Assembly (NCBI GenBank): GCA_964617945.1
Contig: CAZTXA010000001.1
Coordinates: 1 to 60,846, forward strand
Direction: 5' to 3'
DNA: 60,846 bases
Source: an uncultured archaeon
Lineage (GTDB): Archaea > Nanohalarchaeota > Nanosalinia > Nanosalinales > Nanohalalkaliarchaeaceae
Below, one piece after another: positions 47,397 to 60,846 of this stretch. The notes beneath the pieces were generated by a model. It ran no database searches and had not been told where the DNA came from. It was given only the letters and a program-made list of their open reading frames with translations. Position numbers and translations under genes: made by a program. Numbering within the stretch: position 1 is the first letter of the stretch; each line of letters opens with the position of its first letter.

Positions 47397-48266
47397 ATGG
47401 GCGTCTCCGGACGTAGGAACGTGGCGAAGGCGGCGGCGGTAACGGCGGTCACTGCCTCGTTTTCCGTGCTAGCTGCTGCACAGTACGGTGGCGGGGGCCG
47501 GTTCGCCCAGATGTTAAACACGTATTTCCTCCCGCAGGGGGCGCAGGTAACAGGGCTGTCTGGACTTATTTTCAGCGTCTTCATCCCGTTCGCGATTGTC
47601 GCCATCCTCCTGGTGGCCGGGCTACAGACCATCGAAGTGTTCAACCGGCGCCAGGCATCCCTGCTCGGCGTTCTTATCGCGCTGTTCATCGTCCCCTCTG
47701 GCGGGTACAAGATAATCTCTGAGACGTTACTGGCGTTGTTCGGACTGGGTCAGACAGGTGTTTCCGCGCCCGGCCTTACAGGCACTCCGCTCGATCCACT
47801 CCTCGAGTCCCCGCTGTGGATGGGAATCCTGGCCTACTTCCTCTCTGTCTACGCGCTAAACAACTTCGTGACGGGTGCGGAGACCGGTTTCACCTTACGA
47901 GAGCACCTCGCCGGTGGTACCGTCGCCGTGCTCGTATACGTGGGACTCTCAGGGTCACAGACCTTCCTCATACTTGCGGTGTTCTGGGGGCTCATCCTCA
48001 TATTCGGCTGGAAGATGTTCAAACGCGGGACCGGTATGGGCGGTGGGACCGGGTTCCTCATCGCGATATTCGGTATTTTCCTGCTTGGTATCGGTGTGAC
48101 GCGAATGGAGATCCTCCCTGAGGAAATCCAGGCGATGGGAAGCACCGTGACCGGATATATATCGGGAGCGTTCTGGGTGCTGCTGATATTGGCTGTTGTG
48201 GCCGGGGCGGTAGCACTCGGGGTGAAGGCATATCAGGAAGGCCTGCTTCAAAAACTGATTTCGTAG
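47397..48266 (+). CDS. polytopic membrane protein, member 1 of a four-gene tandem paralogous family (uncharacterised)
   Basis: About 8 TM helices. The N-terminal helix region (LSGLIFSVFIPFAIVAILLVAGLQT) aligns with the family core. TATA TTTAAAT at 47366-47372. Confidence 0.6.
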   Translation: MGVSGRRNVAKAAAVTAVTASFSVLAAAQYGGGGRFAQMLNTYFLPQGAQVTGLSGLIFSVFIPFAIVAILLVAGLQTIEVFNRRQASLLGVLIALFIVPSGGYKIISETLLALFGLGQTGVSAPGLTGTPLDPLLESPLWMGILAYFLSVYALNNFVTGAETGFTLREHLAGGTVAVLVYVGLSGSQTFLILAVFWGLILIFGWKMFKRGTGMGGGTGFLIAIFGIFLLGIGVTRMEILPEEIQAMGSTVTGYISGAFWVLLILAVVAGAVALGVKAYQEGLLQKLIS

Positions 48267-48337
48267 GTGAGGGAGTGAGGTGATACCTGATTGTCAGTGG
48301 GATTGAGGCGTGGATCGGTGTTGCCGAGCGGACAGGA

Positions 48338-48805
48338 GTGTACGGCTACGTACTCCCGTTCCTGGTGACGTTCCTGATCATCTATGGTGTGATGGAGAAG
48401 GTGGAGCCGTTCGGCGGCGGACAGAGCAGGCTACACGCCCTGTTCGCCTCACTCGTCGGCCTGTTCCTGCTCGCATTCGCTCCTGGCGGCGTCATCGGGG
48501 CGTTCTTCTCCAACTTTTTCGGCGCCGTTGCAGTCGTGATGGTCGGGTTAGTGCTGGTGATGGTCGTATACGCGCTCGTATTTGGACAGCCAACTGCGGA
48601 CTCGGCCTTTGTCAAGGGGCTGGGGGTCATCGGTGCGACCGCTGCCGCAGTCCTGTTCCTCATCTGGGGCGGGTTCTCGCTGGTATTCCCGGAGGACGTT
48701 TCGCTATACGGCGGGCTTGGGGGGTACCTTGACGTCGTTGTCGTGCTCGGCCTCCTCGCGCTGCTCGGCTGGGCACTGTTCGGCGGCGGGAACGCGGGAG
48801 AGTAG
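48338..48805 (+). CDS. polytopic membrane protein, family member 2 (start probably upstream at a non-AUG codon)
   Basis: YGYVLPFLVTFLIIYGVMEKV aligns with FFEFGLPILFFMAVYYGLLMKT and FFKYGAPFLLMFALVFGLTTKL. See the finding on 48277-48340. Confidence 0.6.
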   Translation: MYGYVLPFLVTFLIIYGVMEKVEPFGGGQSRLHALFASLVGLFLLAFAPGGVIGAFFSNFFGAVAVVMVGLVLVMVVYALVFGQPTADSAFVKGLGVIGATAAAVLFLIWGGFSLVFPEDVSLYGGLGGYLDVVVVLGLLALLGWALFGGGNAGE

Positions 48806-48869
48806 CGGGAGTAACTACGGCAGCGGAGAAACTTATTTAAACAGGGCGGACGGTAAACGGCAATAGATA

Positions 48870-49502
48870 ATGGATATAACCCAGAAGCTGGTCGGTGCCG
48901 CTGCATCCGGGTTCCTGATGGTGCAGGTCGCTGCAGCCCAGAACCAGGGGACGATCGGCTCCGGCATCCAGTCGCTCTGGGATATCGGGTTCTTCAAGTA
49001 CGGCGCCCCGTTCCTCCTCATGTTCGCCCTTGTATTCGGTCTCACTACCAAGTTATCGATATTCGAGAACGACCAGGTCAGCGCGATCGTCGCAGTGACC
49101 GCGGGACTGTTCGTCGACGCCGCAATCCTGCAGGGATACGTGAGCGGGCCGACACTGGAGGTATTCCTGTTCCAGTTCTTCGGCGCGTTCGCAGTCATCG
49201 CGTCAGGCCTGCTCGTCGTCGTGATGGCGGCCGGGCTCGGAGGATATGAAGGAGAGTGGGCGTTCGGTGATAACGCTAAACGCGCGTTCTTCGTGCTGGG
49301 CGGTCTCGCAGCGGTGACCGCGTTCATCGGCTGGGGCGGCCTCCAGTGGCTTGAAATCTCTGCCGCACAGTCCGAGGTAGGAAACCTCGGCTTCTTCAGT
49401 AATGACCTGTTCATCCTGCTCGTCGTTGTCGTCCTTATCGTCGGTCTCGTCTGGTGGGTGACCGGTGGCGAGGAAGGCGGCGGTGGCGAAGAAGGCGAAT
49501 AG
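48870..49502 (+). CDS. polytopic membrane protein, family member 3
   Basis: SGIQSLWDIGFFKYGAPFLLMFALVFGLTTKLSIFEND. G/E-rich C-terminus. TATA TTTAAA lies 29-34 nt upstream. Confidence 0.6.
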   Translation: MDITQKLVGAAASGFLMVQVAAAQNQGTIGSGIQSLWDIGFFKYGAPFLLMFALVFGLTTKLSIFENDQVSAIVAVTAGLFVDAAILQGYVSGPTLEVFLFQFFGAFAVIASGLLVVVMAAGLGGYEGEWAFGDNAKRAFFVLGGLAAVTAFIGWGGLQWLEISAAQSEVGNLGFFSNDLFILLVVVVLIVGLVWWVTGGEEGGGGEEGE

Positions 49503-49548
49503 AACCGCCACATATAAAAGCAGATAGTATTTAATTCGTTGTAGGACG

Positions 49549-50049
49549 ATGGCAACGCCTGGATTCGAGTTATTGTTCCAGAACCTGCAGTCCATCGGGT
49601 TCTTCGAGTTCGGCCTCCCTATCCTGTTCTTCATGGCCGTGTACTACGGCCTGCTGATGAAGACCGGGACGATCAGCGACGAAGAATCCGTCAACGGGAC
49701 CGCAGCCATCGCACTCGCGTTCCTGACCACGCTCGGTATCTATACGTTCATCCCGTTCAGCATCTTCCCACAGTTCTTCGCCGCACTCGCCGTTCTGGTC
49801 GTCCTCGTCCTCGGCGGTATGATGCTGATGGGGATGCTGGGCGTCGAGGTAGGCGGTGAGATGGACGAGCGGGCGCAGCGGTTGATGGTCATCGGTGTCG
49901 TTGCCCTCCTGATAATCGTCGGCGTCCCACTGTTCGGGTCCATGGACATCGGGTTCGAGCTGACGGACGACTTCATGAATTTCATCCTGACGATCGCCAC
50001 GATCGCGGTCATCGGCTACGTCATCCGGTCGATGGGCGGCGGAGAATAA
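49549..50049 (+). CDS. polytopic membrane protein, family member 4
   Basis: FQNLQSIGFFEFGLPILFFMAVYYGLLMKTGTISDEE. Four to five TM helices. Confidence 0.6.
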   Translation: MATPGFELLFQNLQSIGFFEFGLPILFFMAVYYGLLMKTGTISDEESVNGTAAIALAFLTTLGIYTFIPFSIFPQFFAALAVLVVLVLGGMMLMGMLGVEVGGEMDERAQRLMVIGVVALLIIVGVPLFGSMDIGFELTDDFMNFILTIATIAVIGYVIRSMGGGE

Positions 50050-50050
50050 G

Positions 50051-50809
50051 CTACTCTTCCTGCATCTCCTTGACCAGTGCCGACAGTTCACGCGTATTCT
50101 CGACAAGCGACGGCAGCACCTGTTCGAACGCCTTCTCCATCCCCCCGATCCGGGACTGTGACTCGGCCAGGTAGTCCTCGATCTCCTCCACCTTCTGCAC
50201 GACTTCCTGCTGGTCCTCGTCCTCCCTGATCTCCAGCTCCTCCACACGGTCCTCCAGATCTGCGACCCGGCCCTGCAGGCTATCAAGTTCGCTGTACACG
50301 GTATTGAACTCGTCCTCCACGTCCGTGAAATGCTCGGAGACGATCGTCTCGATCAGCTCTTCCTCCTCCATCGACACGCCCGACGGTTCGCCGAACCCGG
50401 AGTCATCGTCCTCGGGGGGTTCCTCCGGTTCCGCCGGCTCCGGTTCCTGCTGCGGTTGCTGCGGGGCGGGTTGCTCCACCGGTGCAGCGGGTGACTGTTC
50501 CTCCTGGGGGGCAGGTGCCTGCGCGGTGGACTGGCCGCCCGTCGCTCCTGGAGCGGGGGACTGCCCTGTGTTCCGCGGCGCCGCCTGCTGGCCGCCAGAC
50601 TGTCCACGTTCAACGGTCCGTTCCTGGACGGCCTGGTTGATCGCCTCGTTGATCTCACCGTAGGAATACCCGCGGTCCCGCAGCTGTTCCGTTATCTCGC
50701 TCTCCGCGTAGCCGTCGTCGCTTAACCGCCGGACCTCGTCCACGGGCGGCCGGCCACGGCCCTCCGCCTCTCCCTCTTCACCGCCCCGGAACCGGTCGAG
50801 AACACCCAT
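50051..50809 (-). CDS. three-part protein: small helical N-domain, Q/P-rich linker, C-terminal coiled coil (uncharacterised)
   Basis: VDEVRRLSDDGYAESEITEQLRDRGYSYGEINEAINQAV. Linker ...QAPAPQEEQSPAAPVEQPAPQQPQQEPEPAEPEEPPEDDD. Coiled coil LDSLQGRVADLEDRVEELE.... Confidence 0.55.
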   Translation of the reverse strand: MGVLDRFRGGEEGEAEGRGRPPVDEVRRLSDDGYAESEITEQLRDRGYSYGEINEAINQAVQERTVERGQSGGQQAAPRNTGQSPAPGATGGQSTAQAPAPQEEQSPAAPVEQPAPQQPQQEPEPAEPEEPPEDDDSGFGEPSGVSMEEEELIETIVSEHFTDVEDEFNTVYSELDSLQGRVADLEDRVEELEIREDEDQQEVVQKVEEIEDYLAESQSRIGGMEKAFEQVLPSLVENTRELSALVKEMQEE

Positions 50810-51246
50810 TATTCGTCCTCCTCCAGTTCGTCAAGCTTGCGTTCGATCATTCGATTTACCTCGTACTTTGACACGCCGCCGGATCCTTGTTCCTCGAGCA
50901 TATCCTCAACCTCGCTCTCCGTCACGAACGAACTGCTGACGGGGTCCATCAGGTTGAGGTAGTTCTCGATTTCGCTGATTTCCCGTTTTGTCACGGTTTT
51001 ACGGAGGTTGCGCTGCAGGTTCTTGATATCGACCTCGAGGTTGGCCGCCCGGTCCTGCAGGCTTTCAATATTACTTTCAACATCCGAGACCTCGCTATTT
51101 AACGCTTTCGTCCGTTCGAGCAGCGTGTCCTCGACCGTGTTCACCCGTGCGTTGAGGTTCCGGACGTTCTCCTCCAGGTCACGGATCCGCCGGTTGAACT
51201 CCTTCATCCGCTGGACGACCTCGGTCATCGTCTCCTGCTGCGCCAT
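50809..51246 (-). CDS. coiled-coil protein (uncharacterised), first gene of a two-gene operon divergent from the pilus ATPase
   Basis: Start ATG 51246 (MAQQETMTEVVQRMKEFNRRIRDLEENVRNLNARVNTVEDTLLE...). TAATG overlap with the downstream gene. Confidence 0.55.
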   Translation of the reverse strand: MAQQETMTEVVQRMKEFNRRIRDLEENVRNLNARVNTVEDTLLERTKALNSEVSDVESNIESLQDRAANLEVDIKNLQRNLRKTVTKREISEIENYLNLMDPVSSSFVTESEVEDMLEEQGSGGVSKYEVNRMIERKLDELEEDE

Positions 51247-51349
51247 GTGCCACCGTTGTGGAGCCTTACTTATATTGTTCCCACCGCTGTCTCCACGGAA
51301 ACCGGCGCCACGGCAAAAGTATAATAGGTCGGCAGCCGAGAACCGTGGC

Positions 51350-53623
51350 ATGGCGGTCGAGGATCTTGACACGTGGGAGTACGAGTACGACGACGAGTCC
51401 GGGACGATCCGGGTCAACGCGCTGGGAAGCGTGTACGGGCCGTCGGTCGAGGACTATCCCGAAGTGATGGCCCGCGTCATCGATATCTTGCGTGAAGTCG
51501 GTGGGGCGTCCTCCATCGTCCTGTCCGCCTCCCGTGAATACGAGTACCCGGAGGAGCAGACCGAGCTGCTGCAGGAGGTGGCGCAGGCCATCCAGGACAT
51601 CACCCGCGGCGGGTACCTCGCGAAGGAGAACCTGCGGGCGAAGAAATGCGAGAAGTACTACCCGGTGTGGCGGCAGGACCTGCAGGAACTTGTCACCAAC
51701 GACCTCCGGCAGGACCCGGTGGGCGCGTACGTCAAGCTCCGCCGTGAAATCCGGCACAAGAAAGAGGAGATGGAGGACGCGTACCCGGAGACGAAACGGT
51801 GCTACAAGTTCTACATCCATGACATCCTCCAGCCACTGAAACAGCGCCTCGAGGAGACGCAGATGGTGCAGCAGGCGCAGGAGCACGTGACAGGGTACCA
51901 TGTCGGCGACCGTGCGCTCTACAGGGAGATGTTCCACCCGCTGGTCCGGCCGAACTTCATGCTTACCAAGTACATGTCGCTGCCGCCGGAGCAGGGCGAG
52001 GAGATCGACCGGTACACCATCGGGAACGACGTGGAAGTGGAGATATACCGGGTGCCGGACGAGGCCCAGCGCATCTACCACATGACCCCGCCAGAATTCG
52101 ACCTGTCCGAGGAGAAATACACGATACTGGACGCGGCACGCCGGTACATGGGCGAGCACCGGCCGGCATCGGAAGAATTTGCGAAGCCGGAGCGGATGCG
52201 GGACGTGTTCGCCAACATCGGCCGCGACATGCTGGTCGATATCGCGGACCAGATGAACACGTCGCTCTCCTCGGAAGAACTGGACAACCTCACCGACATC
52301 CTGACACGGTACACCGCCGGGCTGGGCGTCCTCGAACTGCTGTTCGCGGATACGCGGATTCAGGACGTGTACGTGAACTCGCCGGTCGGGATGGAACCGG
52401 TATTCATCTTCCATGCGGACTACGAGGAGTGCCGCACCAACCTCGTGCCGACGCGGGAGGACGCGGAGTCGTGGGCGACACGGTTCCGGATACAGAGCGG
52501 GCGGCCGCTGGACGAGGCGAACCCGGTCCTGGATACGGAGATGGAGGTGCCCGGCGGCCGTGCACGTGTGGCGGTGATCCAGGAGAACCTGTCGCCGGAA
52601 GGCCTCGGGTTCGCGTTCCGCCGGCACCGAGACGAGCCGTGGACCTACCCCTTGTTTATCGACAACGACTATTTCAACCCGCTCGCCGCCGCGTTGATGA
52701 GCTTCCTGATCGACGGCGGCCGGACCATGCTCATCTCCGGGACGCGCTCCGCGGGAAAGACCTCGCTGATGGGTGCGTCCCTCCTCGAACTGATGAAGAA
52801 GACACGGCTGGTCACGGTCGAGGACACGCTCGAACTCCCTGTTCCCGCCCTGCAGGACATCGGGTACAACGCGGAGCGGATGAAGAGCCGGTCAGTCATC
52901 ACCCAGGTCGAGTCAGAGCTGCCCGCGGACGAGGCCATCAGGACATCGCTCCGGCTGGGCGATTCCGCACTCGTGCTGGGCGAGGTCCGGAGCGACGAGG
53001 CAAAAGCATTGTACGAGGCGATGCGTATCGGGGCCGTCGCCAACTTTGTCGGCGGTACGATCCACGGCGAGGACGCGTACGCGGTGTTCGACAGGGTGGT
53101 GAACGATCTCGGTGTACCGGCGACCTCGTTCAAGGCGACGGACATCATCGTCTCCGCCAACCGGCTGCGTAGTCCCTCTGGGACAGACCGGTTCCGCCGT
53201 GTGACCGGTATCACCGAGGTCCGGAAGGACTGGACCGAGGACCCGGCGCGGGAGAACGGCTTCGTGGACCTGATGCGGTACGACGCGGAGCAGGATAAAC
53301 TGGTGCCGACCGAGACCCTGCTGAACGGTGAGTCCGTCATCCTCAACAGGATCGCGGACAACGTCCGGGAGTGGAAGAACGACTGGGACGCGGTATGGGA
53401 GAACATCCAGCTCCGGAAACGCGTCAAGCAGCGGCAGGTCGACCTTGCCAGCCACGGCGACCACGTCCTTGAGGCACAGTTCACCTCGAAGGCGAACGAG
53501 AAATTCCATACCATCTCCGACCAGGTGAAGGAGGAGTACGGCGAGCTTGACCCGGAACGCATCTACGCACGGTGGAACGAGTGGGCGGAGCGAACCGCCA
53601 AGCAGGGACTTGAGGAGCGGTAA
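51350..53623 (+). CDS. pilB: type IV pilus/archaellum-superfamily secretion ATPase (PilB/FlaI/GspE family) with a long N-terminal domain
   Basis: Walker A ISGTRSAGKTSL, Asp box VTVEDTLEL, Walker B/His box ALVLGEVRSDEA...GGTIHG. Start ATG 51350. TATA TATAATA at 51320-51326. Confidence 0.85.
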   Translation: MAVEDLDTWEYEYDDESGTIRVNALGSVYGPSVEDYPEVMARVIDILREVGGASSIVLSASREYEYPEEQTELLQEVAQAIQDITRGGYLAKENLRAKKCEKYYPVWRQDLQELVTNDLRQDPVGAYVKLRREIRHKKEEMEDAYPETKRCYKFYIHDILQPLKQRLEETQMVQQAQEHVTGYHVGDRALYREMFHPLVRPNFMLTKYMSLPPEQGEEIDRYTIGNDVEVEIYRVPDEAQRIYHMTPPEFDLSEEKYTILDAARRYMGEHRPASEEFAKPERMRDVFANIGRDMLVDIADQMNTSLSSEELDNLTDILTRYTAGLGVLELLFADTRIQDVYVNSPVGMEPVFIFHADYEECRTNLVPTREDAESWATRFRIQSGRPLDEANPVLDTEMEVPGGRARVAVIQENLSPEGLGFAFRRHRDEPWTYPLFIDNDYFNPLAAALMSFLIDGGRTMLISGTRSAGKTSLMGASLLELMKKTRLVTVEDTLELPVPALQDIGYNAERMKSRSVITQVESELPADEAIRTSLRLGDSALVLGEVRSDEAKALYEAMRIGAVANFVGGTIHGEDAYAVFDRVVNDLGVPATSFKATDIIVSANRLRSPSGTDRFRRVTGITEVRKDWTEDPARENGFVDLMRYDAEQDKLVPTETLLNGESVILNRIADNVREWKNDWDAVWENIQLRKRVKQRQVDLASHGDHVLEAQFTSKANEKFHTISDQVKEEYGELDPERIYARWNEWAERTAKQGLEER

Positions 53624-53626
53624 CCA

Positions 53627-55759
53627 ATGTTCGACTGGTTCGGTGACGACCACGACGAGGAGGGGGAGGAACGGATGTCGGAGGAACGGAAGGAGGAGAT
53701 CAACGACATCCTGGACAGCTACGAGCAACGGTTTGACGCAGAGATCGGTGGTGAGACGGGCCGGGTCGCGTCCCGCGACTACCAGGCGTACCAGGAGGCT
53801 GAAGAGGAGGCGCGGAAGACGACATGGTACGAGAAACTGGTTAACAGGATTTCGTTCTTCCGGTACGAGTTCGACGACCTGGAGGAGGAGCACCGGGACG
53901 CGCTCCGCCTGATCGACTACGACCTCGAGCCTCATCAGATCGTCCCTGCAGCGCTTGTCGTGGCCGCAGTCACTGCCGTGATGGTGACGCCTGTCCTGCT
54001 TGCGGAACTCCCGACGTTGTTCAAGATATTCGCGGTCTCGGTGCCGCTCGGCATGTTCTACTATATCGCCAAGTATCCGCAGCTGAAGGCCCGGCAGAAG
54101 GTTGTGCGGTCGTCGGAGAACCTCATACTCGCAATACTTTACATGGTCATATACATGCGTTCGACGCCGAACCTTGAGGGCGCCCTCATCTTCGCGTCCC
54201 GCCATCTTGAGGGACCTGTGTCAAAGGACCTGAAGCTGTTACTGTGGCGGCTGGACGTCCGGGAATATACGACGGTCCGGGAAGCGCTCGCCGACTACAT
54301 CAACCGGTGGCGGCCCTACAACCAGGGATTCGTGCAGGCGCTTAACCTGATAAAATCGGCGACAGCCGAGGCTAAAAAGTCGAAACGGAACGCCGTGCTG
54401 GCCGAGGCGATTGACACACTTCTCGAGGATACACAGGACAGGATGGACGAGTTCGCCCACCAGCTGAAGATGCCGGTCATGGCGCTGTACGCCATCGGCA
54501 TCCTCCTCCCGGTCCTCGCTATCATCCTGTTCCCGATGATTGCAGCGTTCATGGGCGGCGGCGGGATGGCGGTATACCTTGCGCTGCTGTACAATATCAT
54601 CATCCCTGTGACCGTGTACGTCCTGATGAAAAACCTGTTGATTAGCCGACCGCTGTCGCTCTCCTCCCAGACAGGGCAGCTCATGGAGACCCATCCTGGC
54701 ATGGTGACGGTGTCGGTGCTGGACCGGGATTTCAGGTTCAATGTCGCGTTCATCAGCATCCCGCTGTTCATTGTACTCGCCGCATGGCCGCTCCCACACT
54801 ACTACCAGGCGATCATAGCCGGCAGCGGAATACCGATCGCGCCGGACACGGTCACGTTCTTCCGGGAACTCCTCCTGGTACTGGCGGTCTCGTTCCCGAT
54901 CGGTGTCCACCTCGTCGGCGGGTACCGGAGCGTCGTCCGGAAACAGGAACAGCTCCAGTCGATGGAGGACGAGTTCCCGGAGGTTCTGTTTGAACTGGCG
55001 AACGCACTGGATCGGGGGAAACCAGTAGAGCTTGCGGTGGAGGACGTTGCACGGGAGGAGAAACGGCTCGACATATCGGACATGTTCGCCGCGCTGTCCC
55101 ACAACATGCGGGAACGCGGCATGACGTTCCATGACGCGCTGTTCGACGCGGAATACGGGGCGATGAGGCAGTACCCGTCCAAGCTGATGCAGACAGTCAT
55201 GGAGGTGCTGTCCGAGTCCACCGGGAAAGGCCCGGCGGTGGCGGCCAGTGCGGCGTCAAGTATCTCGGAATACCTGCAGCGGATCAAGGAGACGCAGAAA
55301 CGGCTGGAGGAGCTTATCGAGGACACCCTGTCATCCGTCCAGTTCCTCGGATACATCCTCGCACCGGTAATCGCGGGTGTAGCGGTCGGCCTCGGAGGGG
55401 TGATATCGCTCGCGTTCGACACCATCCAGCAGGTCGCCGGCGCCGCACAGCCGGGGAATGCGACGGGGAACGCGACAACACCCGGCGGCGGGTTCGGCGG
55501 CGATACGAGTCTCGTCGGGATCTTCGAGATTCACGATGCGATCCCGCCAGGCATCCTGCAGCTCGTTGTCGGGCTGTACCTCATCCAGATATCGTTCATC
55601 ATCGGGACGATGTACGTCCGGCTCGAGGAGGGGCGGAACCCGGCGAAGCGGAACGTGATGATAGGAAAGCTGCTGCTCGTGGCGATACCCTTATATACAC
55701 TGGTAACGCTGATTTTGATCGTGGTATTCGGCAGCATGATCCAGGGGATCGGCGGATGA
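53627..55759 (+). CDS. pilC: type IV pilus platform membrane protein (PilC/TadC/FlaJ family)
   Basis: 710 aa with two blocks of TM helices separated by soluble helical domains (a duplicated T2SSF-like organisation). It starts 3 nt after the ATPase stop. Confidence 0.7.
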   Translation: MFDWFGDDHDEEGEERMSEERKEEINDILDSYEQRFDAEIGGETGRVASRDYQAYQEAEEEARKTTWYEKLVNRISFFRYEFDDLEEEHRDALRLIDYDLEPHQIVPAALVVAAVTAVMVTPVLLAELPTLFKIFAVSVPLGMFYYIAKYPQLKARQKVVRSSENLILAILYMVIYMRSTPNLEGALIFASRHLEGPVSKDLKLLLWRLDVREYTTVREALADYINRWRPYNQGFVQALNLIKSATAEAKKSKRNAVLAEAIDTLLEDTQDRMDEFAHQLKMPVMALYAIGILLPVLAIILFPMIAAFMGGGGMAVYLALLYNIIIPVTVYVLMKNLLISRPLSLSSQTGQLMETHPGMVTVSVLDRDFRFNVAFISIPLFIVLAAWPLPHYYQAIIAGSGIPIAPDTVTFFRELLLVLAVSFPIGVHLVGGYRSVVRKQEQLQSMEDEFPEVLFELANALDRGKPVELAVEDVAREEKRLDISDMFAALSHNMRERGMTFHDALFDAEYGAMRQYPSKLMQTVMEVLSESTGKGPAVAASAASSISEYLQRIKETQKRLEELIEDTLSSVQFLGYILAPVIAGVAVGLGGVISLAFDTIQQVAGAAQPGNATGNATTPGGGFGGDTSLVGIFEIHDAIPPGILQLVVGLYLIQISFIIGTMYVRLEEGRNPAKRNVMIGKLLLVAIPLYTLVTLILIVVFGSMIQGIGG

Positions 55760-55878
55760 GACGGAACGGATTGAACCTGATCATCATCGTGTTCGTCGTG
55801 GCGATCCTCCTCGGAATGCTGGCGCTGTTGACGATGCTGACCGGGATGTTCGACGCGGTCGGCGGAGCCGTCGGGTGA
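55756..55878 (+). CDS. mini prepilin-like protein (40 aa, class III signal peptide-like)
   Basis: MRRNG/LNLIIIVFVVAILLGMLALL.... ATGA overlap with the pilC stop. Below the ORF-track cut-off. Confidence 0.5.
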   Translation: MRRNGLNLIIIVFVVAILLGMLALLTMLTGMFDAVGGAVG

Positions 55879-55884
55879 TATCGG

Positions 55885-56079
55885 ATGAGACGGAAAGGTG
55901 TTGATCTGTCGCTCCGGAGCATGGTTCTCATCGTCCTCGCAGGCGTAGCTTCATTCATCTTCCTAGCCCTGTTCCTCCCCGTGATACAGGGACAGGGACT
56001 GCAGGAGACGCTTATTACGGTGGTAAACACAGTTACGCCAGGCATGGCACAGCACATCCCGAACTTCTTCGGAGGGTGA
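55885..56079 (+). CDS. prepilin-like protein (64 aa)
   Basis: MRRKG/VDLSLRSMVLIVLAGVASFIFLALFL. Confidence 0.55.
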   Translation: MRRKGVDLSLRSMVLIVLAGVASFIFLALFLPVIQGQGLQETLITVVNTVTPGMAQHIPNFFGG

Positions 56080-56702
56080 TGATGGGACGAGCCGGTATCT
56101 CCTTCACCAGTTCGACCATGGTGAAGGTACTCCTCATCGTGCTCGCGCTCGCTGTCCTGTTCGGGTTTGTGGACTGGGCGGTCGGCGGCGTCTCGACCAT
56201 CCTGGGATACGTCCAGTGGGGATCTGGTGCGGAGATGGAGGTAGATACATACAACATCGATCCCAGCGCCGATCCCCCGTTCGAGGTCACGTTCACCTTC
56301 ACTAACACCGCCTCCAGTGAACAGGAATTTTGGGTGAGGGCGCGTGGCGCCAGCGGTACGGACCTCGGATCAGCCCCGCCGGACGATCCGCAGAACAACC
56401 AGCTAACTGTGGAGGGACACGGGTCGACACGCGAGAGCATATCATACACCGGCGACACCGAGGACGTCGGCTGCCAGTTCAAACTCACTGCGTTCAAACG
56501 CTGCGAACTGGCGAGCGACCCGCTCTGTGGGTGGAAAGCCGCCCACCTCAACCAGATATCGACGATCGCGACAGCGACAGTCCGCATCCCGGAGGACCGC
56601 CGCCCGGACGCCTGGGGAGAGGACTGTCCTGCCGGCGACTCGGACGATGGCGGCTTCTGGGGTGGTGTCCTCCGCACGATGGTACGGGTCGGCCCCATAT
56701 AG
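56079..56702 (+). CDS. prepilin-like protein with a 4-Cys globular domain (paralogue A)
   Basis: MMGRAG/ISFTSSTMVKVLLIVLALAVLFGFVDW. The track starts at GTG 56076. It is paralogous to the 56796 gene (VDTYNIDPSADPPFEVT versus VDSYNVDPAASPKFEVT). Confidence 0.65.
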   Translation: MMGRAGISFTSSTMVKVLLIVLALAVLFGFVDWAVGGVSTILGYVQWGSGAEMEVDTYNIDPSADPPFEVTFTFTNTASSEQEFWVRARGASGTDLGSAPPDDPQNNQLTVEGHGSTRESISYTGDTEDVGCQFKLTAFKRCELASDPLCGWKAAHLNQISTIATATVRIPEDRRPDAWGEDCPAGDSDDGGFWGGVLRTMVRVGPI

Positions 56703-56795
56703 CACCGGGCACGGCTGCCGATCCACGGGATAACTGTATTTAAGACAGGAACCCGGAACGTACTGCGTGGACAGGACAACGGGGCTGATGGTACG

Positions 56796-57362
56796 GTGAC
56801 ACGGCGACAGGGGATTCGGTTTCTCAGCGGGACGACTGTGAAGATTATACTGGTGATGCTGGTGCTGGCAGTGTTCTTCGGGTTCGTTGACTGGGGGGTT
56901 GGAACAGCGACGGTACTCCTGGAATACGTCGGATGGGGGGAACCCGGAGACCTGAATGTCGACTCCTACAACGTCGACCCGGCCGCGTCACCGAAGTTCG
57001 AGGTCACGGCAGAGTACGTCAACGAGGAGGACAAGCCGCGAGACATATGGCTGGAGATAAGCGGGAACACGCCCGCAGGATCATCCTACCTCGGCCGGGT
57101 TCCGACCGAGGCGGACGGGCCGCTCCCTATCGGACCGGAGGACGCGTCAGGCCAGCTCACGTTCGAGTACAACGGCGACCTCCGGAACCTCGGCTGCGGG
57201 TTCACCATCGACGTGCACAGGGACTGTGTCGGCATCGTCGCCCCGATGATAGGGTGTACCGGCGTACTGCAGGAGGTATCAGACTCGCAGCGGATGATGT
57301 CGAAGTCGGTCCGGCTCGAGGGCAGCGAGGTACCGCCGGAGTGGCAGGGGAAGTGTTCCTGA
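56796..57362 (+). CDS. prepilin-like protein with a 4-Cys globular domain (paralogue B)
   Basis: GTG start. TRRQG/IRFLSGTTVKIILVMLVLAVFFGFVDW. Confidence 0.65.
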   Translation: MTRRQGIRFLSGTTVKIILVMLVLAVFFGFVDWGVGTATVLLEYVGWGEPGDLNVDSYNVDPAASPKFEVTAEYVNEEDKPRDIWLEISGNTPAGSSYLGRVPTEADGPLPIGPEDASGQLTFEYNGDLRNLGCGFTIDVHRDCVGIVAPMIGCTGVLQEVSDSQRMMSKSVRLEGSEVPPEWQGKCS

Positions 57363-57405
57363 CGCGCGAGAATATTTAAGAGACGAACCGAAACGTGGTG
57401 GTAGG

Positions 57406-57567
57406 ATGCTGAGGAGAGGAGAAGGCCGTTCCATCGGGCTCGTATTCGTTGTCCTGCTTGTTGTTGCGCTCCTCGGCGCAGTCCTCCTGCTCGGAGTGGG
57501 GAAGGGACTGGCGGACACGATAACCGCGACGCTCGATTCACGTATAGCGTCTTGGCTGGTAACATGA
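57406..57567 (+). CDS. mini prepilin-like protein (53 aa)
   Basis: MLRRGEGRS/IGLVFVVLLVVALLGAVLLLG. TATA TATTTAA at 57373-57379. Below the ORF-track cut-off. Confidence 0.5.
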   Translation: MLRRGEGRSIGLVFVVLLVVALLGAVLLLGVGKGLADTITATLDSRIASWLVT

Positions 57568-58247
57568 TACAGAGGAAAGGGTTCACCTTCAATATCCGGA
57601 TTGTGATATTTCTGGCGCTGGCGTTGATGACTGCAGTATTGCTGATAACCGTGCCGAAAGGACATGCGGAGGAGACGACACAGCGCGGGACCGAGTCGAT
57701 AGAGAACGCATCAGGTGCTGAACAGGTCTCCCGCGACCAGACCCTGATAAACCCGGGGTTTGAGGTATCCGGCCAGGGAGGGTGGACCTGTTTCGGGGAC
57801 GAGGCACGGCAGGGCGTCCCCGACTCGTGCGTGTACTTCCCGTCTCAGAGCTTTGACCCGAGCGTCGACCCGCAGGAAGGCCGCAACGTCGGGTATGTGT
57901 CGCACGGTGAAGGCGCGTGCGGGATCCACGGATTCGGGCAGCGGGTTGTCGTACCGGAGACGACCACGACGCTCGAGTTCCAGATGAAGACAGAACTCGC
58001 ACTCGGCAGGGAGGCCGGCGTCTACATCCTGGACGCGGACGGTTCTCTGATGGAGTCACGGGTGAACGAGAACACGGGCAGCCGGACAGCCACCACCTCG
58101 GCGTGGGAGGAGAAACAGGTCGACCTGTCCGGCTCTGTGGGGGATGAGGTACAGATTATCGTGGGGAACGCGGAGACCGGTTCGGACTGCGACCGCGGCG
58201 GCCAGTACAAGATATGGGTCGATGACTTCAGCTTCGCGATAAACTGA
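57564..58247 (+). CDS. prepilin-like protein with a C-terminal CBM/galactose-binding-like jelly-roll domain
   Basis: Start ATG 57564 (ATGA overlap). MIQRKG/FTFNIRIVIFLALALMTAVLLI. INPGFEVSGQGGW resembles the N.gFE.g...W opening of CBM4_9-type modules. It ends in IWVDDFSFAIN. Confidence 0.6.
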   Translation: MIQRKGFTFNIRIVIFLALALMTAVLLITVPKGHAEETTQRGTESIENASGAEQVSRDQTLINPGFEVSGQGGWTCFGDEARQGVPDSCVYFPSQSFDPSVDPQEGRNVGYVSHGEGACGIHGFGQRVVVPETTTTLEFQMKTELALGREAGVYILDADGSLMESRVNENTGSRTATTSAWEEKQVDLSGSVGDEVQIIVGNAETGSDCDRGGQYKIWVDDFSFAIN

Positions 58248-58310
58248 GGTCTGGCCACTGCGCGCAGGAAAGCCGTAACTGTATTAAGAAGGAGCGGGAG
58301 ATAAGCTACC

Positions 58311-59987
58311 ATGCTGTCGCGACGGCGGCCGGGACGGGTAACCATGCATCGTCGAGTGCGGAGCGGAGCGCTCTCCCTCGGCGTCCTGTTGACGCTTCTC
58401 GTGGTCGTTATCGTGGCAAGTGTCGCAGCGTACTCCCTCCAGGGCATCGTTACCCCGGCAGAGGAACGGGTGTCGGAGCAGACTGACCGTATCCCGGAGC
58501 GTGGTGAAACCAACGGTGGCGGGGTCGAATCGACCAATATAGAGGCCGCGCAGGAATTCGTCGTCTGCCCCGCCTCATGCGGCGCTGTTATCAATACCGA
58601 TAAGGGGTCACAGACGTTCAGTCGTTCCGGGAACTACCGGTTACCGTTCCTCAGCCTCCACAGCGGGGAGACGACAACGGTGAACAGCGTCTCCGACCTC
58701 CCGGCCGGTTGTTCAGCCTGGCTGCACCAGGATCTCCGGGGCGTGGATCAGGAACAGTGGTACTCGCAGGCTCCCGAGGGCTCCCTGGAAGTCAAAAGCG
58801 GACAGGAGCTTGAATCCCACGATGCAGAGTTCGCGGTGATAGCGCCGAAGGAACAGTCATGCCGGGAGGGCCTGAGCTTGATCCGCTACGTTGTCCGGGG
58901 AGAGCGGAACGACCACGCGGTCGGAGGTGGCAAGTTGCACACCCACGTCATCTTCAGTGCGATGCACGATTCCACGCGTGATTACCGGATAACGCTGCAG
59001 AACGAGCAGTGTGAGGTTGAACGGGATACAGGATGGAACTCGTATGGGCCGAACGCGTGGTGGTGGAAGGGCTGGAAGGTCGACGACCCTGACTCGAACC
59101 TGCACCAGCCGTACCAGGTCAATATCTGGAACCGAGAGCACTCAGCGGACGAACCAGAGTTCACTTTCGTCGGCTGCGAACCCGGTGGCTCTGAATGTCC
59201 TGGAGCGACAGGGTACGGCGAGGCCTGGTGTACGCCAGGCGAGAGCGACAGCAGTCCCGACGAGGACCCGACCATCTCTAACGTGGAATACGAGAAGAAC
59301 AGCGGGAACGAGCTCGACTTCACGGTTTCGGTCGAAAACAATGATGACTACTCCATCCGGGCGATGGTGAAGTTCGAGCAGAACAACGGCGATGTCTACG
59401 GGAACTGCCCTGGCGGTGCAGGATGCCCCACCCAGCAGATCGAGGGCGGCGGGGCAGCCGTATTCGAACACACGACGAACTGGAAGTCAGGGTACGGACG
59501 GGCCGACTTTAAACCCGACTTCGATATCTCGCTCTGGGTCGAGAATAGTGACGGCGACTTTGAGCTCGTGAACCGTGAGAACTATGAGTGCTGTCCCGGG
59601 ACGGATACGGGCAGTGGAACGGAGTCATGGGACTTCACGATAAACAGTGCCGAGATCTACGAGAACGGGCATAAGGACGCGACCACACGAAGCGATCCGA
59701 AGGCAAAGGTTACCCTGGCAGACAATTCGCATGAGGAGACGAGCAAGATTGATGACGCCCAGAATCCAGAGTGGGACGCCACCCTGTTCACGGACAAGCC
59801 GCGAGAGGCACTGACCGCGCTCACAATCGACATCGACGACTACGATGATACCACATGGGATGATGACATCGGTGAATGCGATTTCAACGTGGACGACAGC
59901 AACTTCGAGGACGGCTCAGAGTTTACACTCACCAAGTCGTGCGGGACGGTGTTCGATGTGACGTTCACAATCAGTCCCGCAGGGTGA
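58311..59987 (+). CDS. large prepilin-like protein with a Cys-rich middle region and a C-terminal C2-like domain
   Basis: RRVRSG/ALSLGVLLTLLVVVIVASVAAY. TATA TATTAAG lies 23-29 nt upstream of ATG 58311. The C-terminal part (SDPKAKVTL...NPEWDATLF...LTIDIDDYDDTTWDDDIGECDF) is C2-like. Confidence 0.65.
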   Translation: MLSRRRPGRVTMHRRVRSGALSLGVLLTLLVVVIVASVAAYSLQGIVTPAEERVSEQTDRIPERGETNGGGVESTNIEAAQEFVVCPASCGAVINTDKGSQTFSRSGNYRLPFLSLHSGETTTVNSVSDLPAGCSAWLHQDLRGVDQEQWYSQAPEGSLEVKSGQELESHDAEFAVIAPKEQSCREGLSLIRYVVRGERNDHAVGGGKLHTHVIFSAMHDSTRDYRITLQNEQCEVERDTGWNSYGPNAWWWKGWKVDDPDSNLHQPYQVNIWNREHSADEPEFTFVGCEPGGSECPGATGYGEAWCTPGESDSSPDEDPTISNVEYEKNSGNELDFTVSVENNDDYSIRAMVKFEQNNGDVYGNCPGGAGCPTQQIEGGGAAVFEHTTNWKSGYGRADFKPDFDISLWVENSDGDFELVNRENYECCPGTDTGSGTESWDFTINSAEIYENGHKDATTRSDPKAKVTLADNSHEETSKIDDAQNPEWDATLFTDKPREALTALTIDIDDYDDTTWDDDIGECDFNVDDSNFEDGSEFTLTKSCGTVFDVTFTISPAG

Positions 59988-60110
59988 CCGACGGCCTGAT
60001 CGGGATCTACGCGCGGAGACCACGTTCTTATTTAATTGGCAAGTACCAAGACAAGTCCGTTGTATGGAAAAAACGGCATTCACCAGCGGATGCTCTCTGG
60101 AGGGGGCTGC

Positions 60111-60846
60111 ATGGTAGCGCTCCTCCCGATAGGGATGAGCCGTGCAGGCCGCACAACGGATGAGACTATCTGGCTATTCGTCAAGACCCTGGCCGTCCTT
60201 CTGGTGCTGTGGTCGATCGGGAGCATGCTTATCTCATTCGAGGGGCAGATTGCAGGGGCAGAGTTCGACCTGAAATCGTTCCGGGCGGAGATAGATAAGG
60301 GGTGCTCAGTCGGGCACCAGCGGGACGAGTTCCAGTACACGTTCGAGACCGGACCGGCAGAGGTCGCTGTCACCGGGGATAGCACGTACCGGATGGAGCT
60401 CGACAACGGCCGCGTGGTGACGGCGGATGCGCAGTCCTGTGAATCGGTGGAGATGCCGAACAGTCCGATGGAGGTACCGCCGGACGGCCAGGTCCTCATG
60501 AAGCTGGAATACACAGACGATAAGTCGGTAACCATCGTGCCGGGCTGTGGCGACAACGTGTGCGGGTCCGGTGAGTCGTATGATATCTGTCCGGAAGACT
60601 GTCTCACACACGCCTCCATCGACAACCCGCAGGGCATGTACCCGAGGGATAGCGGATGGTGGCTGGTCGGGAGTGGGACCGGGGAGTCGAAGATTTTCGA
60701 ATACAACGAGGACTGGTCCTACACTGGTACAAGCTATGACTTGACCAGCGCTGATTCACGGATGCGGGATATTCACGAGGCTGACAACGGCGACTGGTGG
60801 ATGACCGGGTTCGGGGAATGGGGGATGAACAGGGAGGGCGGTGAGG
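60111..60846 (+). CDS. prepilin-like/secreted protein, 5' part (continues beyond the window)
   Basis: The frame is open from ATG 60111 to the window end and is not in the track (no stop). MSRAG/RTTDETIWLFVKTLAVLLVLWSIGSML, a CGDNVCGSGESYDICPEDC knot motif, then W/G-rich repeats. Confidence 0.55.
   Translation, partial: MVALLPIGMSRAGRTTDETIWLFVKTLAVLLVLWSIGSMLISFEGQIAGAEFDLKSFRAEIDKGCSVGHQRDEFQYTFETGPAEVAVTGDSTYRMELDNGRVVTADAQSCESVEMPNSPMEVPPDGQVLMKLEYTDDKSVTIVPGCGDNVCGSGESYDICPEDCLTHASIDNPQGMYPRDSGWWLVGSGTGESKIFEYNEDWSYTGTSYDLTSADSRMRDIHEADNGDWWMTGFGEWGMNREGGE

Follow-up and report, generated by a model that had tools for sequence, protein, structure and literature searches.

What does a nanohaloarchaeon build with a type IV filament motor, and are the building blocks encoded beside it? 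The question is raised by positions 51,350 to 60,846 of contig CAZTXA010000001.1 (assembly GCA_964617945.1), where the genes for a secretion/assembly ATPase and a TadC-type membrane platform are followed by a row of genes for prepilin-like proteins. The window analyzed here is that whole contig (C1; 60,846 nucleotides), which belongs to a Nanohaloarchaeota metagenome-assembled genome (MAG) of 585 kb in 88 contigs, estimated to be 69% complete; the window has a GC content of approx. 62% and encodes acidic proteins. The source organism is a DPANN symbiont of haloarchaea and, to our knowledge, every DPANN archaeon so far brought into culture is attached to a host.

The evidence presented below leads us to regard the locus, with a probability of roughly 0.8, as the Nanohaloarchaeota version of the cluster-2 DPANN type IV filament locus, which comprises coiled-coil proteins, a CpaF-like ATPase and TadC.

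The motor core

The ATPase (757 aa; 51350..53623, + strand) is of the hexameric type, belongs to the GspE/FlaI/CpaF superfamily and is extended by approx. 220 aa at its N-terminus. It carries a Walker A motif (GTRSAGKTS, at 464), an Asp box (VTVEDTLE, 490), a Walker B motif (LVLGEVR, 541) and a His box (GGTIHGED, 569), and scores 46.2 bits on the Pfam model T2SSE (cut-off 24.9). We placed the protein by hidden Markov model scores and by ranks in the Protein Data Bank (PDB). It reached 124.5 bits on the NCBIfam FlaI/ArlI equivalog NF058587 (cut-off 550), 107 bits on the TadA model TIGR03819 (cut-off 373) and 53 bits on the BasE model NF053672 (cut-off 1000), and the PDB ranking placed GspE2 of Archaeoglobus fulgidus (2oap, 87 bits) ahead of CpaF (67 bits) and FlaI (62 bits). 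Strong matches to this ATPase were found in approx. 60 of the 70 Nanohaloarchaeota genomes used for the phylum-wide ATPase comparisons, and orthologues at 54-56% identity occur in MAGs of Aenigmatarchaeota and other Nanobdellati.

Many of the orthologous ATPases contain an intein, located directly past the Asp box (TVED/S...) at approx. residue 494 of the window protein. This is the case for L007:117-2534 and for L063:1-1163, which matches Pfam Intein_splicing, as well as for other split matches; the copy in the window is without an intein.

Three nucleotides separate the ATPase stop codon from the ATG of the gene for a TadC/FlaJ/GspF-type platform protein (710 aa; 53627..55759, + strand), for which a hydropathy scan predicts approx. 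nine transmembrane helices and two cytoplasmic helical domains. This protein scores 20.9 bits on T2SSF, below the cut-off of 25.2, and sequence and profile searches of the PDB returned no match for it. T2SSF is matched by 16 of 18 TadC orthologues (best E-value 9e-11), and it is through these orthologues that the protein can be recognized, as judged from sequence, as a platform protein of the type IV filament superfamily.

Two genes on the opposite strand, divergent from the ATPase gene, encode coiled-coil proteins. Only weak coiled-coil-type matches were obtained for ccp1 (252 aa; 50051..50809, - strand), among them one to FlaC_arch (E=0.003, below cut-off), and ccp2 (145 aa; 50809..51246, - strand) gave a weak match, also below cut-off, to the coiled-coil family DUF7310. 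The first of these proteins corresponds to the coiled-coil proteins (CCPs) described by Hamm et al. 2024 (PMC11291902).

Eight prepilin-like genes behind TadC

Behind TadC lie eight co-oriented open reading frames (ORFs; p1 to p8, all on the + strand) whose products begin with a basic N-terminus, usually followed by a glycine, and a hydrophobic helix of approx. 20 aa (best 19-residue Kyte-Doolittle means, 2.1-3.3). The criterion applied to class III sites was a short basic leader, G, A or S at position -1, and a hydrophobic helix of approx. 20 aa. A FlaFind-like regular-expression scan of the genome proved too strict (it missed p1, p2, p4, p5, p7 and p8) and was not used as a census.

Mini-prepilin-like proteins are encoded by p1 (40 aa; 55756..55878; MRRNG/LNLIIIVFVV, the slash marking the putative cleavage site), p2 (64 aa; 55885..56079; MRRKG/VDLSLRSMVLIVLAG) and p5 (53 aa; 57406..57567; MLRRG/EGRSIGLVFVVLL), with predicted mature lengths of approx. 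35 aa for p1 and 45 aa for p5. The products of p3 (206 aa; 56082..56702; MGRAG/ISFTSS) and p4 (188 aa; 56796..57362; TRRQG/IRFLSG) are paralogues sharing 34% identity. Next in the row are p6 (227 aa; 57564..58247; MIQRKG/FTFNIRIVIFL), with a modelled C-terminal beta-sandwich, and p7 (558 aa; 58311..59987; ...RVRSG/ALSLGVLLTLLV), a large Cys-rich protein with a C-terminal C2 domain. The last gene, p8 (60111..60846; ...MSRAG/RTTDETIWLFVKTLAVLLVLW), contains internal repeats of approx. 60 aa and is cut by the contig end.

Overlaps of the ATGA/TGATG type chain TadC to p1 (ATGA at the TadC stop), p2 to p3 and p5 to p6. Each of the longer gaps, namely 56702-56795, 57363-57405, 58248-58310 and 59988-60110 (before p4, p5, p7 and p8), holds a TATA-like element of the form (T)ATTTAAG/ATTAAGA located 25-45 nt ahead of the next start (CTGTATTTAAGA, ATATTTAAGA, CTGTATTAAGAAGG and TTATTTAATT; the gap ahead of p4 holds a TATA-like ATTTAAGA). 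These elements suggest several internal promoters instead of a single long operon.

The first-pass annotation of this DNA had described an ATPase with Walker A, Asp and His boxes, a 710-aa TadC-like protein 3 nt downstream, eight class III-type N-termini and overlapping start and stop codons between several of the genes. All of these features, including every one of the quoted N-termini, are present in the sequence where they had been placed. The ORFs starting at 55756, 57406 and 60111, which it had noted as absent from the ORF track, are shown to be real genes by the close relative used for orthologue comparison (L063, a syntenic 9.6-kb contig), in which genes of 40, 56 and 410 aa are called at the same places.

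The same annotation had described some of the pilins as modular and adhesin-like. This holds for p7, whose C2 domain was detected with Pfam (E=1.4e-8, residues 454-532) and matches that of protein kinase C-alpha in the PDB; for p6 a sandwich resembling a carbohydrate-binding module (CBM) is predicted at low confidence only. The p6 model matched the folds of CBM35, CBM4, CBM61 and adhesin domains, and we regard this CBM-like fold as a hint only.

The database name of the subunits is "hypothetical protein". A word-indexed search returned one or two homologues each for p3, p6 and p7, all in close relatives: p3 has two among 5.8 billion proteins, and the single homologue of p7 (69% identity) bears the NCBI name "C2 domain-containing protein". 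With so few homologues, the alignments available for structure prediction were shallow. An AlphaFold2 model of p3, built on a five-sequence alignment, shows a helix (residues 10-44) followed by a beta-sandwich (50-170), with a predicted local distance difference test score (pLDDT) of approx. 88 in the sandwich and 70 on average. Its best fold match in the PDB is 8fk7, the subunit of an archaeal type IV pilus of Pyrobaculum calidifontis (E=4.5e-5), followed in the list by generic immunoglobulin (Ig)-like sandwiches.

Comparison with a close relative and continuation of the row

The gene order is the same in L063, where the genes corresponding to p1-p8 are called with lengths of 40, 62, 204, 142, 56, 216, 559 and 410 aa. 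Identity to the relative is 96% for the ATPase, 87% for TadC, 61-73% for p1-p7 (p1 69%, p2 73%, p4 69%, p5 68%) and 86% for p8. The ratio of nonsynonymous to synonymous substitutions (dN/dS) was 0.10 for TadC and 0.11-0.30 for p2-p7 (0.20 for p2, 0.19 for p4 and 0.25 for p5). Given these low values, p2-p7 are judged from codon comparison to be coding and under purifying selection; the value for p1 was 0.72, calculated over 40 codons only.

In the relative, p6 keeps SSKG/FTWNV upstream of the annotated start, and position -1 of p7 is A in L063 and G in the window genome. Class III sites accept G, A or S at -1, and an A at this position fits that rule.

The row does not end with the window. The last 22 aa of p8 of L063 match C29:3-68, and the two genes that follow in L063 match C29:177-587 (93%) and C29:665-952 (88%), which indicates, from this alignment of contigs, that the locus continues from C1 onto contig C29 with a gap of approx. 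0.4 kb inside the p8 repeats. Six further class III-type genes were found within C29:1-5433 (starts at 177, 578, 1742, 2859, 3380 and 4864), so that the locus holds at least 14 prepilin-like genes in total.

A gene for the chromatin- and RNA-binding protein Alba (C29:4504-4797) lies inside the pilin row, and in 17 of the 20 related loci, L043, L053 and L058 among them, Alba is found at the corresponding position. Alba shows a mean identity of 77% across the phylum. The gene immediately downstream of it encodes the subunit that is conserved best, of the pattern [KR]KG/MSQTL.LIVAASVLMMTALT ([KR]KG/MSQTL..LIVAASVLMM). In a set of 1.84 billion protein clusters, only 47 represent the family of this post-Alba subunit, and we consider the protein a candidate major pilin.

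Conservation of the arrangement across the phylum

Is the arrangement specific to this genome? We examined 20 loci fetched around ATPase orthologues from genomes spread across the phylum. The genes for ccp1, ccp2 (42-56% identity), the ATPase and TadC were present in all 20, and in every case a row of approx. 10-14 ORFs on the same strand was located behind TadC. The first gene past TadC was in each locus an ORF of 34-74 aa with an N-terminal hydrophobic helix, and such a helix was predicted for 219 of the 243 ORFs behind TadC.

A glycine directly after the last K or R before the helix was found in 100 of these 219 ORFs (46%), compared with 5 of 122 (4%) among other N-terminal-helix ORFs of the window genome; the difference is large, although the ratio serves as an indication and not as a formal test, given the relatedness of the genomes and the crudeness of the control set. 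When p1-p8 were compared with the 20 related loci by tblastn, only one weak match, for p8 and outside the array, was obtained. The conservation of the row is shown by position and N-terminal pattern because the subunits have diverged too far for tblastn.

The prepilin peptidase

The window had been said to lack a prepilin peptidase. That is correct, and the search of the rest of the genome that had been proposed located an A24 prepilin peptidase on another contig (C2:3-953; 35-38 bits on Peptidase_A24, cut-off 26.5). The pilus reading had been said to fail if the genome had no prepilin peptidase or if the ATPase grouped with archaellum ArlI; a peptidase is present, and by model scores and PDB ranks the ATPase is not ArlI-like. 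We tentatively take a AAYLDLKTSEVPD stretch and a GGAD motif in the peptidase to be its two catalytic Asp motifs. Since the Pfam model finds no peptidase in two of five complete genomes of relatives, this enzyme is evidently very diverged in the phylum. In genome G031 the only A24-like match (contig C1 of that genome, 669812-670150) adjoins a third ATPase paralogue (approx. 500 aa; 667256-668587) and not the counterpart of the locus described here.

A model of assembly, and points that weigh against it

Taken as the Nanohaloarchaeota version of the DPANN filament locus, these genes would operate as follows. The A24 peptidase would cut the subunits after [KR]G, and the ATPase and TadC would then extract them from the membrane and stack them via their N-terminal helices. 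The product would be a filament on the cell surface, in the form of a pilus or of a short pseudopilus. Its core might be made of the helix-only proteins p1, p2 and p5 and/or of the conserved post-Alba protein encoded on C29, which are the candidates for this role. The larger, fast-evolving subunits would be minor or tip components, with predicted Ig-like sandwiches (p3 and p4), a CBM-like sandwich (p6), a C2 domain (p7) or repeats (p8), and their probable role would be to attach to the haloarchaeal host at its surface.

Several observations weigh against this reading. In the first place, the filament locus of this organism is known purely from its genes, and host binding by the subunits is something that we wholly infer. 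Pfam and NCBIfam scans that covered all 14 subunits, including those on C29, assigned none of them to a pilin family, and p7 gave no more than E=0.06 on Pilin_N. The cleavage site of p5 is ambiguous and unusual (RRG/EGRS or EGRS/I), and in p8 charged residues stand straight after the glycine (G/RTTDE). The structural models add similar cautions, as the TM-scores of p3 against 8fk7 are modest (0.38 by query, 0.53 by target) and the p6 model is of low confidence (mean pLDDT 56, with approx. 80 in the C-terminal beta part). With regard to processing, the peptidase gene is cut by the end of contig C2, and in the five related complete genomes the Peptidase_A24 model gave three matches, all below cut-off, and none in the other two.

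Finally, the link between motor core and subunit row comes entirely from Nanohaloarchaeota. Two loci of non-halophilic DPANN archaea, both from Aenigmatarchaeota/Nanobdellati MAGs, were compared. In one of them, L006, no pilin-like row follows TadC, and the physical link between core and subunits may be special to Nanohaloarchaeota. The small membrane proteins, the two coiled-coil proteins, the ATPase and TadC are all kept in L006. The other locus, L004, says little in this respect, as it ends approx. 0.6 kb past the ATPase match, and this short stretch holds neither an ORF of TadC size nor a pilin-like one.

Alternative explanations

The alternative that survives best, which we nevertheless think unlikely, is a display system resembling the bindosome of Sulfolobus or type II secretion. 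Here a short pseudopilus or scaffold would hold large class III surface proteins (p6, p7 and p8; 300-1200 aa in relatives) that are not themselves filament subunits, as is the case for the sugar-binding proteins of the bindosome. The presence of many large subunits with binding-type modules is consistent with this view, as are several mini-proteins resembling the small components of the BasABC type and the main text of a paper on the imaging of nanohaloarchaea, which mentions no long pili. The weak BasE match of the ATPase can also be cited for it, but this match is far under its cut-off and weaker than those to the FlaI and TadA models. Moreover, the Pfam and NCBIfam scans revealed no solute-binding domain in any of the proteins, a point in which the locus differs from the bindosome, and the modelled p3 appears to have the compact build of a pilin. 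The machinery and processing would be the same as in the filament reading, and only the shape of the product would differ.

It is far less probable that p1-p8 are ordinary, uncleaved signal-anchor (type II) proteins encoded beside a secretion ATPase, with the K/R-G motif produced by the positive-inside rule and chance. The missing pilin family matches and the atypical sites of p5 and p8 would fit such an origin. However, the enrichment of glycine after the last basic residue relative to other N-terminal-helix ORFs, the retention of the arrangement behind TadC in all 20 loci despite divergence beyond BLAST detection, the match of the p3 model to an archaeal pilin and the presence of a prepilin peptidase led us to reject this explanation.

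An archaellum (motility) operon can, as judged from sequence, be dismissed, as had been claimed from the outset: FlaI is nominally the best NCBIfam match of the ATPase and ccp1 resembles FlaC_arch weakly, but the ATPase falls far short of the ArlI cut-off and is the least ArlI-like of the phylum (its other ATPase paralogues score 300-440 bits, and none in the 70 genomes passes, whereas control archaea with archaella do), FlaI comes behind GspE2 and CpaF in the PDB ranking, the highest archaellin score (PF01917) in this 69% complete genome, obtained outside the window, is 24.8 bits and so below the cut-off of 29.5, and Pfam and NCBIfam scans of the window genes at 47397-60846 gave no ArlB-, ArlC/D/E-, ArlF/G- or ArlH-like match apart from the sub-threshold FlaC_arch (for ArlH the search covered these genes).

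Neighbouring genes and other pilus genes of the genome

Next to the coiled-coil genes lies m4 (166 aa; 49549..50049, + strand), which encodes a small polytopic membrane protein with no Pfam match. It is a conserved neighbour, since tblastn found a match to m4 beside the coiled-coil genes in most of the 20 loci. Upstream of m4 are its paralogues m3 (48870-49502) and m2 (48338-48805), and the gene of another membrane protein, m1 (47397-48266).

The genome contains a second type IV pilus locus, of the haloarchaeal type, at C4:45-9013. Its TadC is split into two genes, and its ATPase (646 aa) matches PilB3_C and scores 418 bits on the FlaI model. Five class III genes are present in this locus, three of which match DUF7289, DUF7266 and DUF7287; the product of the last of the five we take, by eye, to be LamG-like. 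Stand-alone class III-like genes were also found, at C2:38963-39844, C15:1498-1842 and C50:1654-2566 and on C64, C74 and C76. Three members of this set match Pilin_N (two over the cut-off) and two are of the type MRRG/QV(A/S)(L/V)EY. In view of these additional genes, the small genome invests heavily in prepilin-like proteins.

Relation to known systems

The closest counterparts of the locus are found among cluster-2 DPANN archaea. Hamm et al. 2024 (Nat Commun, PMC11291902) described two conserved cluster-2 DPANN loci with coiled-coil proteins, CpaF and TadC, and detected several of the encoded proteins in the proteome of Ca. Nanohaloarchaeum antarcticus; they name filament proteins (FlaF and PilA) for Locus 1 alone. 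The window shares with these loci two divergent coiled-coil genes followed by the ATPase and TadC. It differs from them in that class III genes, at least 14 in number and all unannotated, are placed directly behind TadC. Since the Locus 1 neighbours Mpg, GroEL and GatE are absent from the window, the locus is probably "Locus 2" of these authors.

Euryarchaeal pili such as the Epd pili of Methanococcus maripaludis (Makarova, Koonin & Albers 2016, PMC4858521) are similar in combining an ATPase and TadC with at least five class III proteins, mostly presumed minor pilins, in having large adhesin-like members and in relying on a peptidase encoded elsewhere. In contrast to these, the window subunits are unrelated in sequence, do not have Q at position +1 and lack a DUF361-type motif. 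In addition, the 710-aa platform is fused and takes the place of two TadC gene products, and the locus also includes genes for coiled-coil and small membrane proteins. The Pil system of the Haloferax volcanii type (PilB3/PilC3 with PilA pilins) belongs to the same machine superfamily and is represented in this genome by the C4 locus. The window ATPase, however, shares no more than 27% identity with the C4 ATPase and has a different N-terminal extension, and the subunits match no haloarchaeal pilin family.

Among bacterial systems, the modular pilins PilB and PilC of Streptococcus sanguinis (PMC8179133, PMC9934059) likewise consist of a pilin moiety with a grafted module, for which the C2 domain of p7 and the CBM-like part of p6 would be the equivalents here. 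Those bacterial pilins have been tested experimentally, whereas the modules encoded in the window are predicted. The Flp pilins of bacterial Tad systems resemble the mini-prepilin-like proteins in being very short, with little beyond the hydrophobic helix. Unlike the Tad systems, the locus has no Flp motif or Pfam Flp match, its ATPase is well under the TadA cut-off and its platform is fused and not divided into TadB and TadC.

The locus is therefore a lineage-specific version of a known kind of machine and not a new machine. The motor genes have already been published; in the searchable literature we found no description of a row of fast-evolving pilin-like genes behind the motor, and a 2022 study of Nanohaloarchaeota (PMC9563170) annotated no pilins in its MAGs.

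Implications for host attachment

A more far-reaching proposal, which we put forward as a tentative possibility and hold to be doubtful in its full form, is that the at least 14 prepilin-like proteins encoded in this row are the cognate pilins hitherto missing for the DPANN coiled-coil/CpaF/TadC machine and build a host-contact organelle. Its core would consist of mini-pilins and the post-Alba protein, and its interchangeable tips (the C2 domain of p7, possibly binding Ca2+ and lipid, and the lectin-like p6 and p3/p4) might grip the host membrane or S-layer glycans. If this proposal is true, the divergence of the subunits (61-73% identity, compared with 87-96% for the motor) would track host specificity.

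Published genome surveys have found the pilus motors and not the subunits. The locus described here, together with the 20 related loci, provides a concrete list of candidates for the Nanohaloarchaeota, made up of mini-pilins, a candidate major pilin beside Alba and large variable subunits with predicted binding modules. This list can be tested in existing co-cultures, and it bears on the question of how DPANN archaea attach to their hosts.

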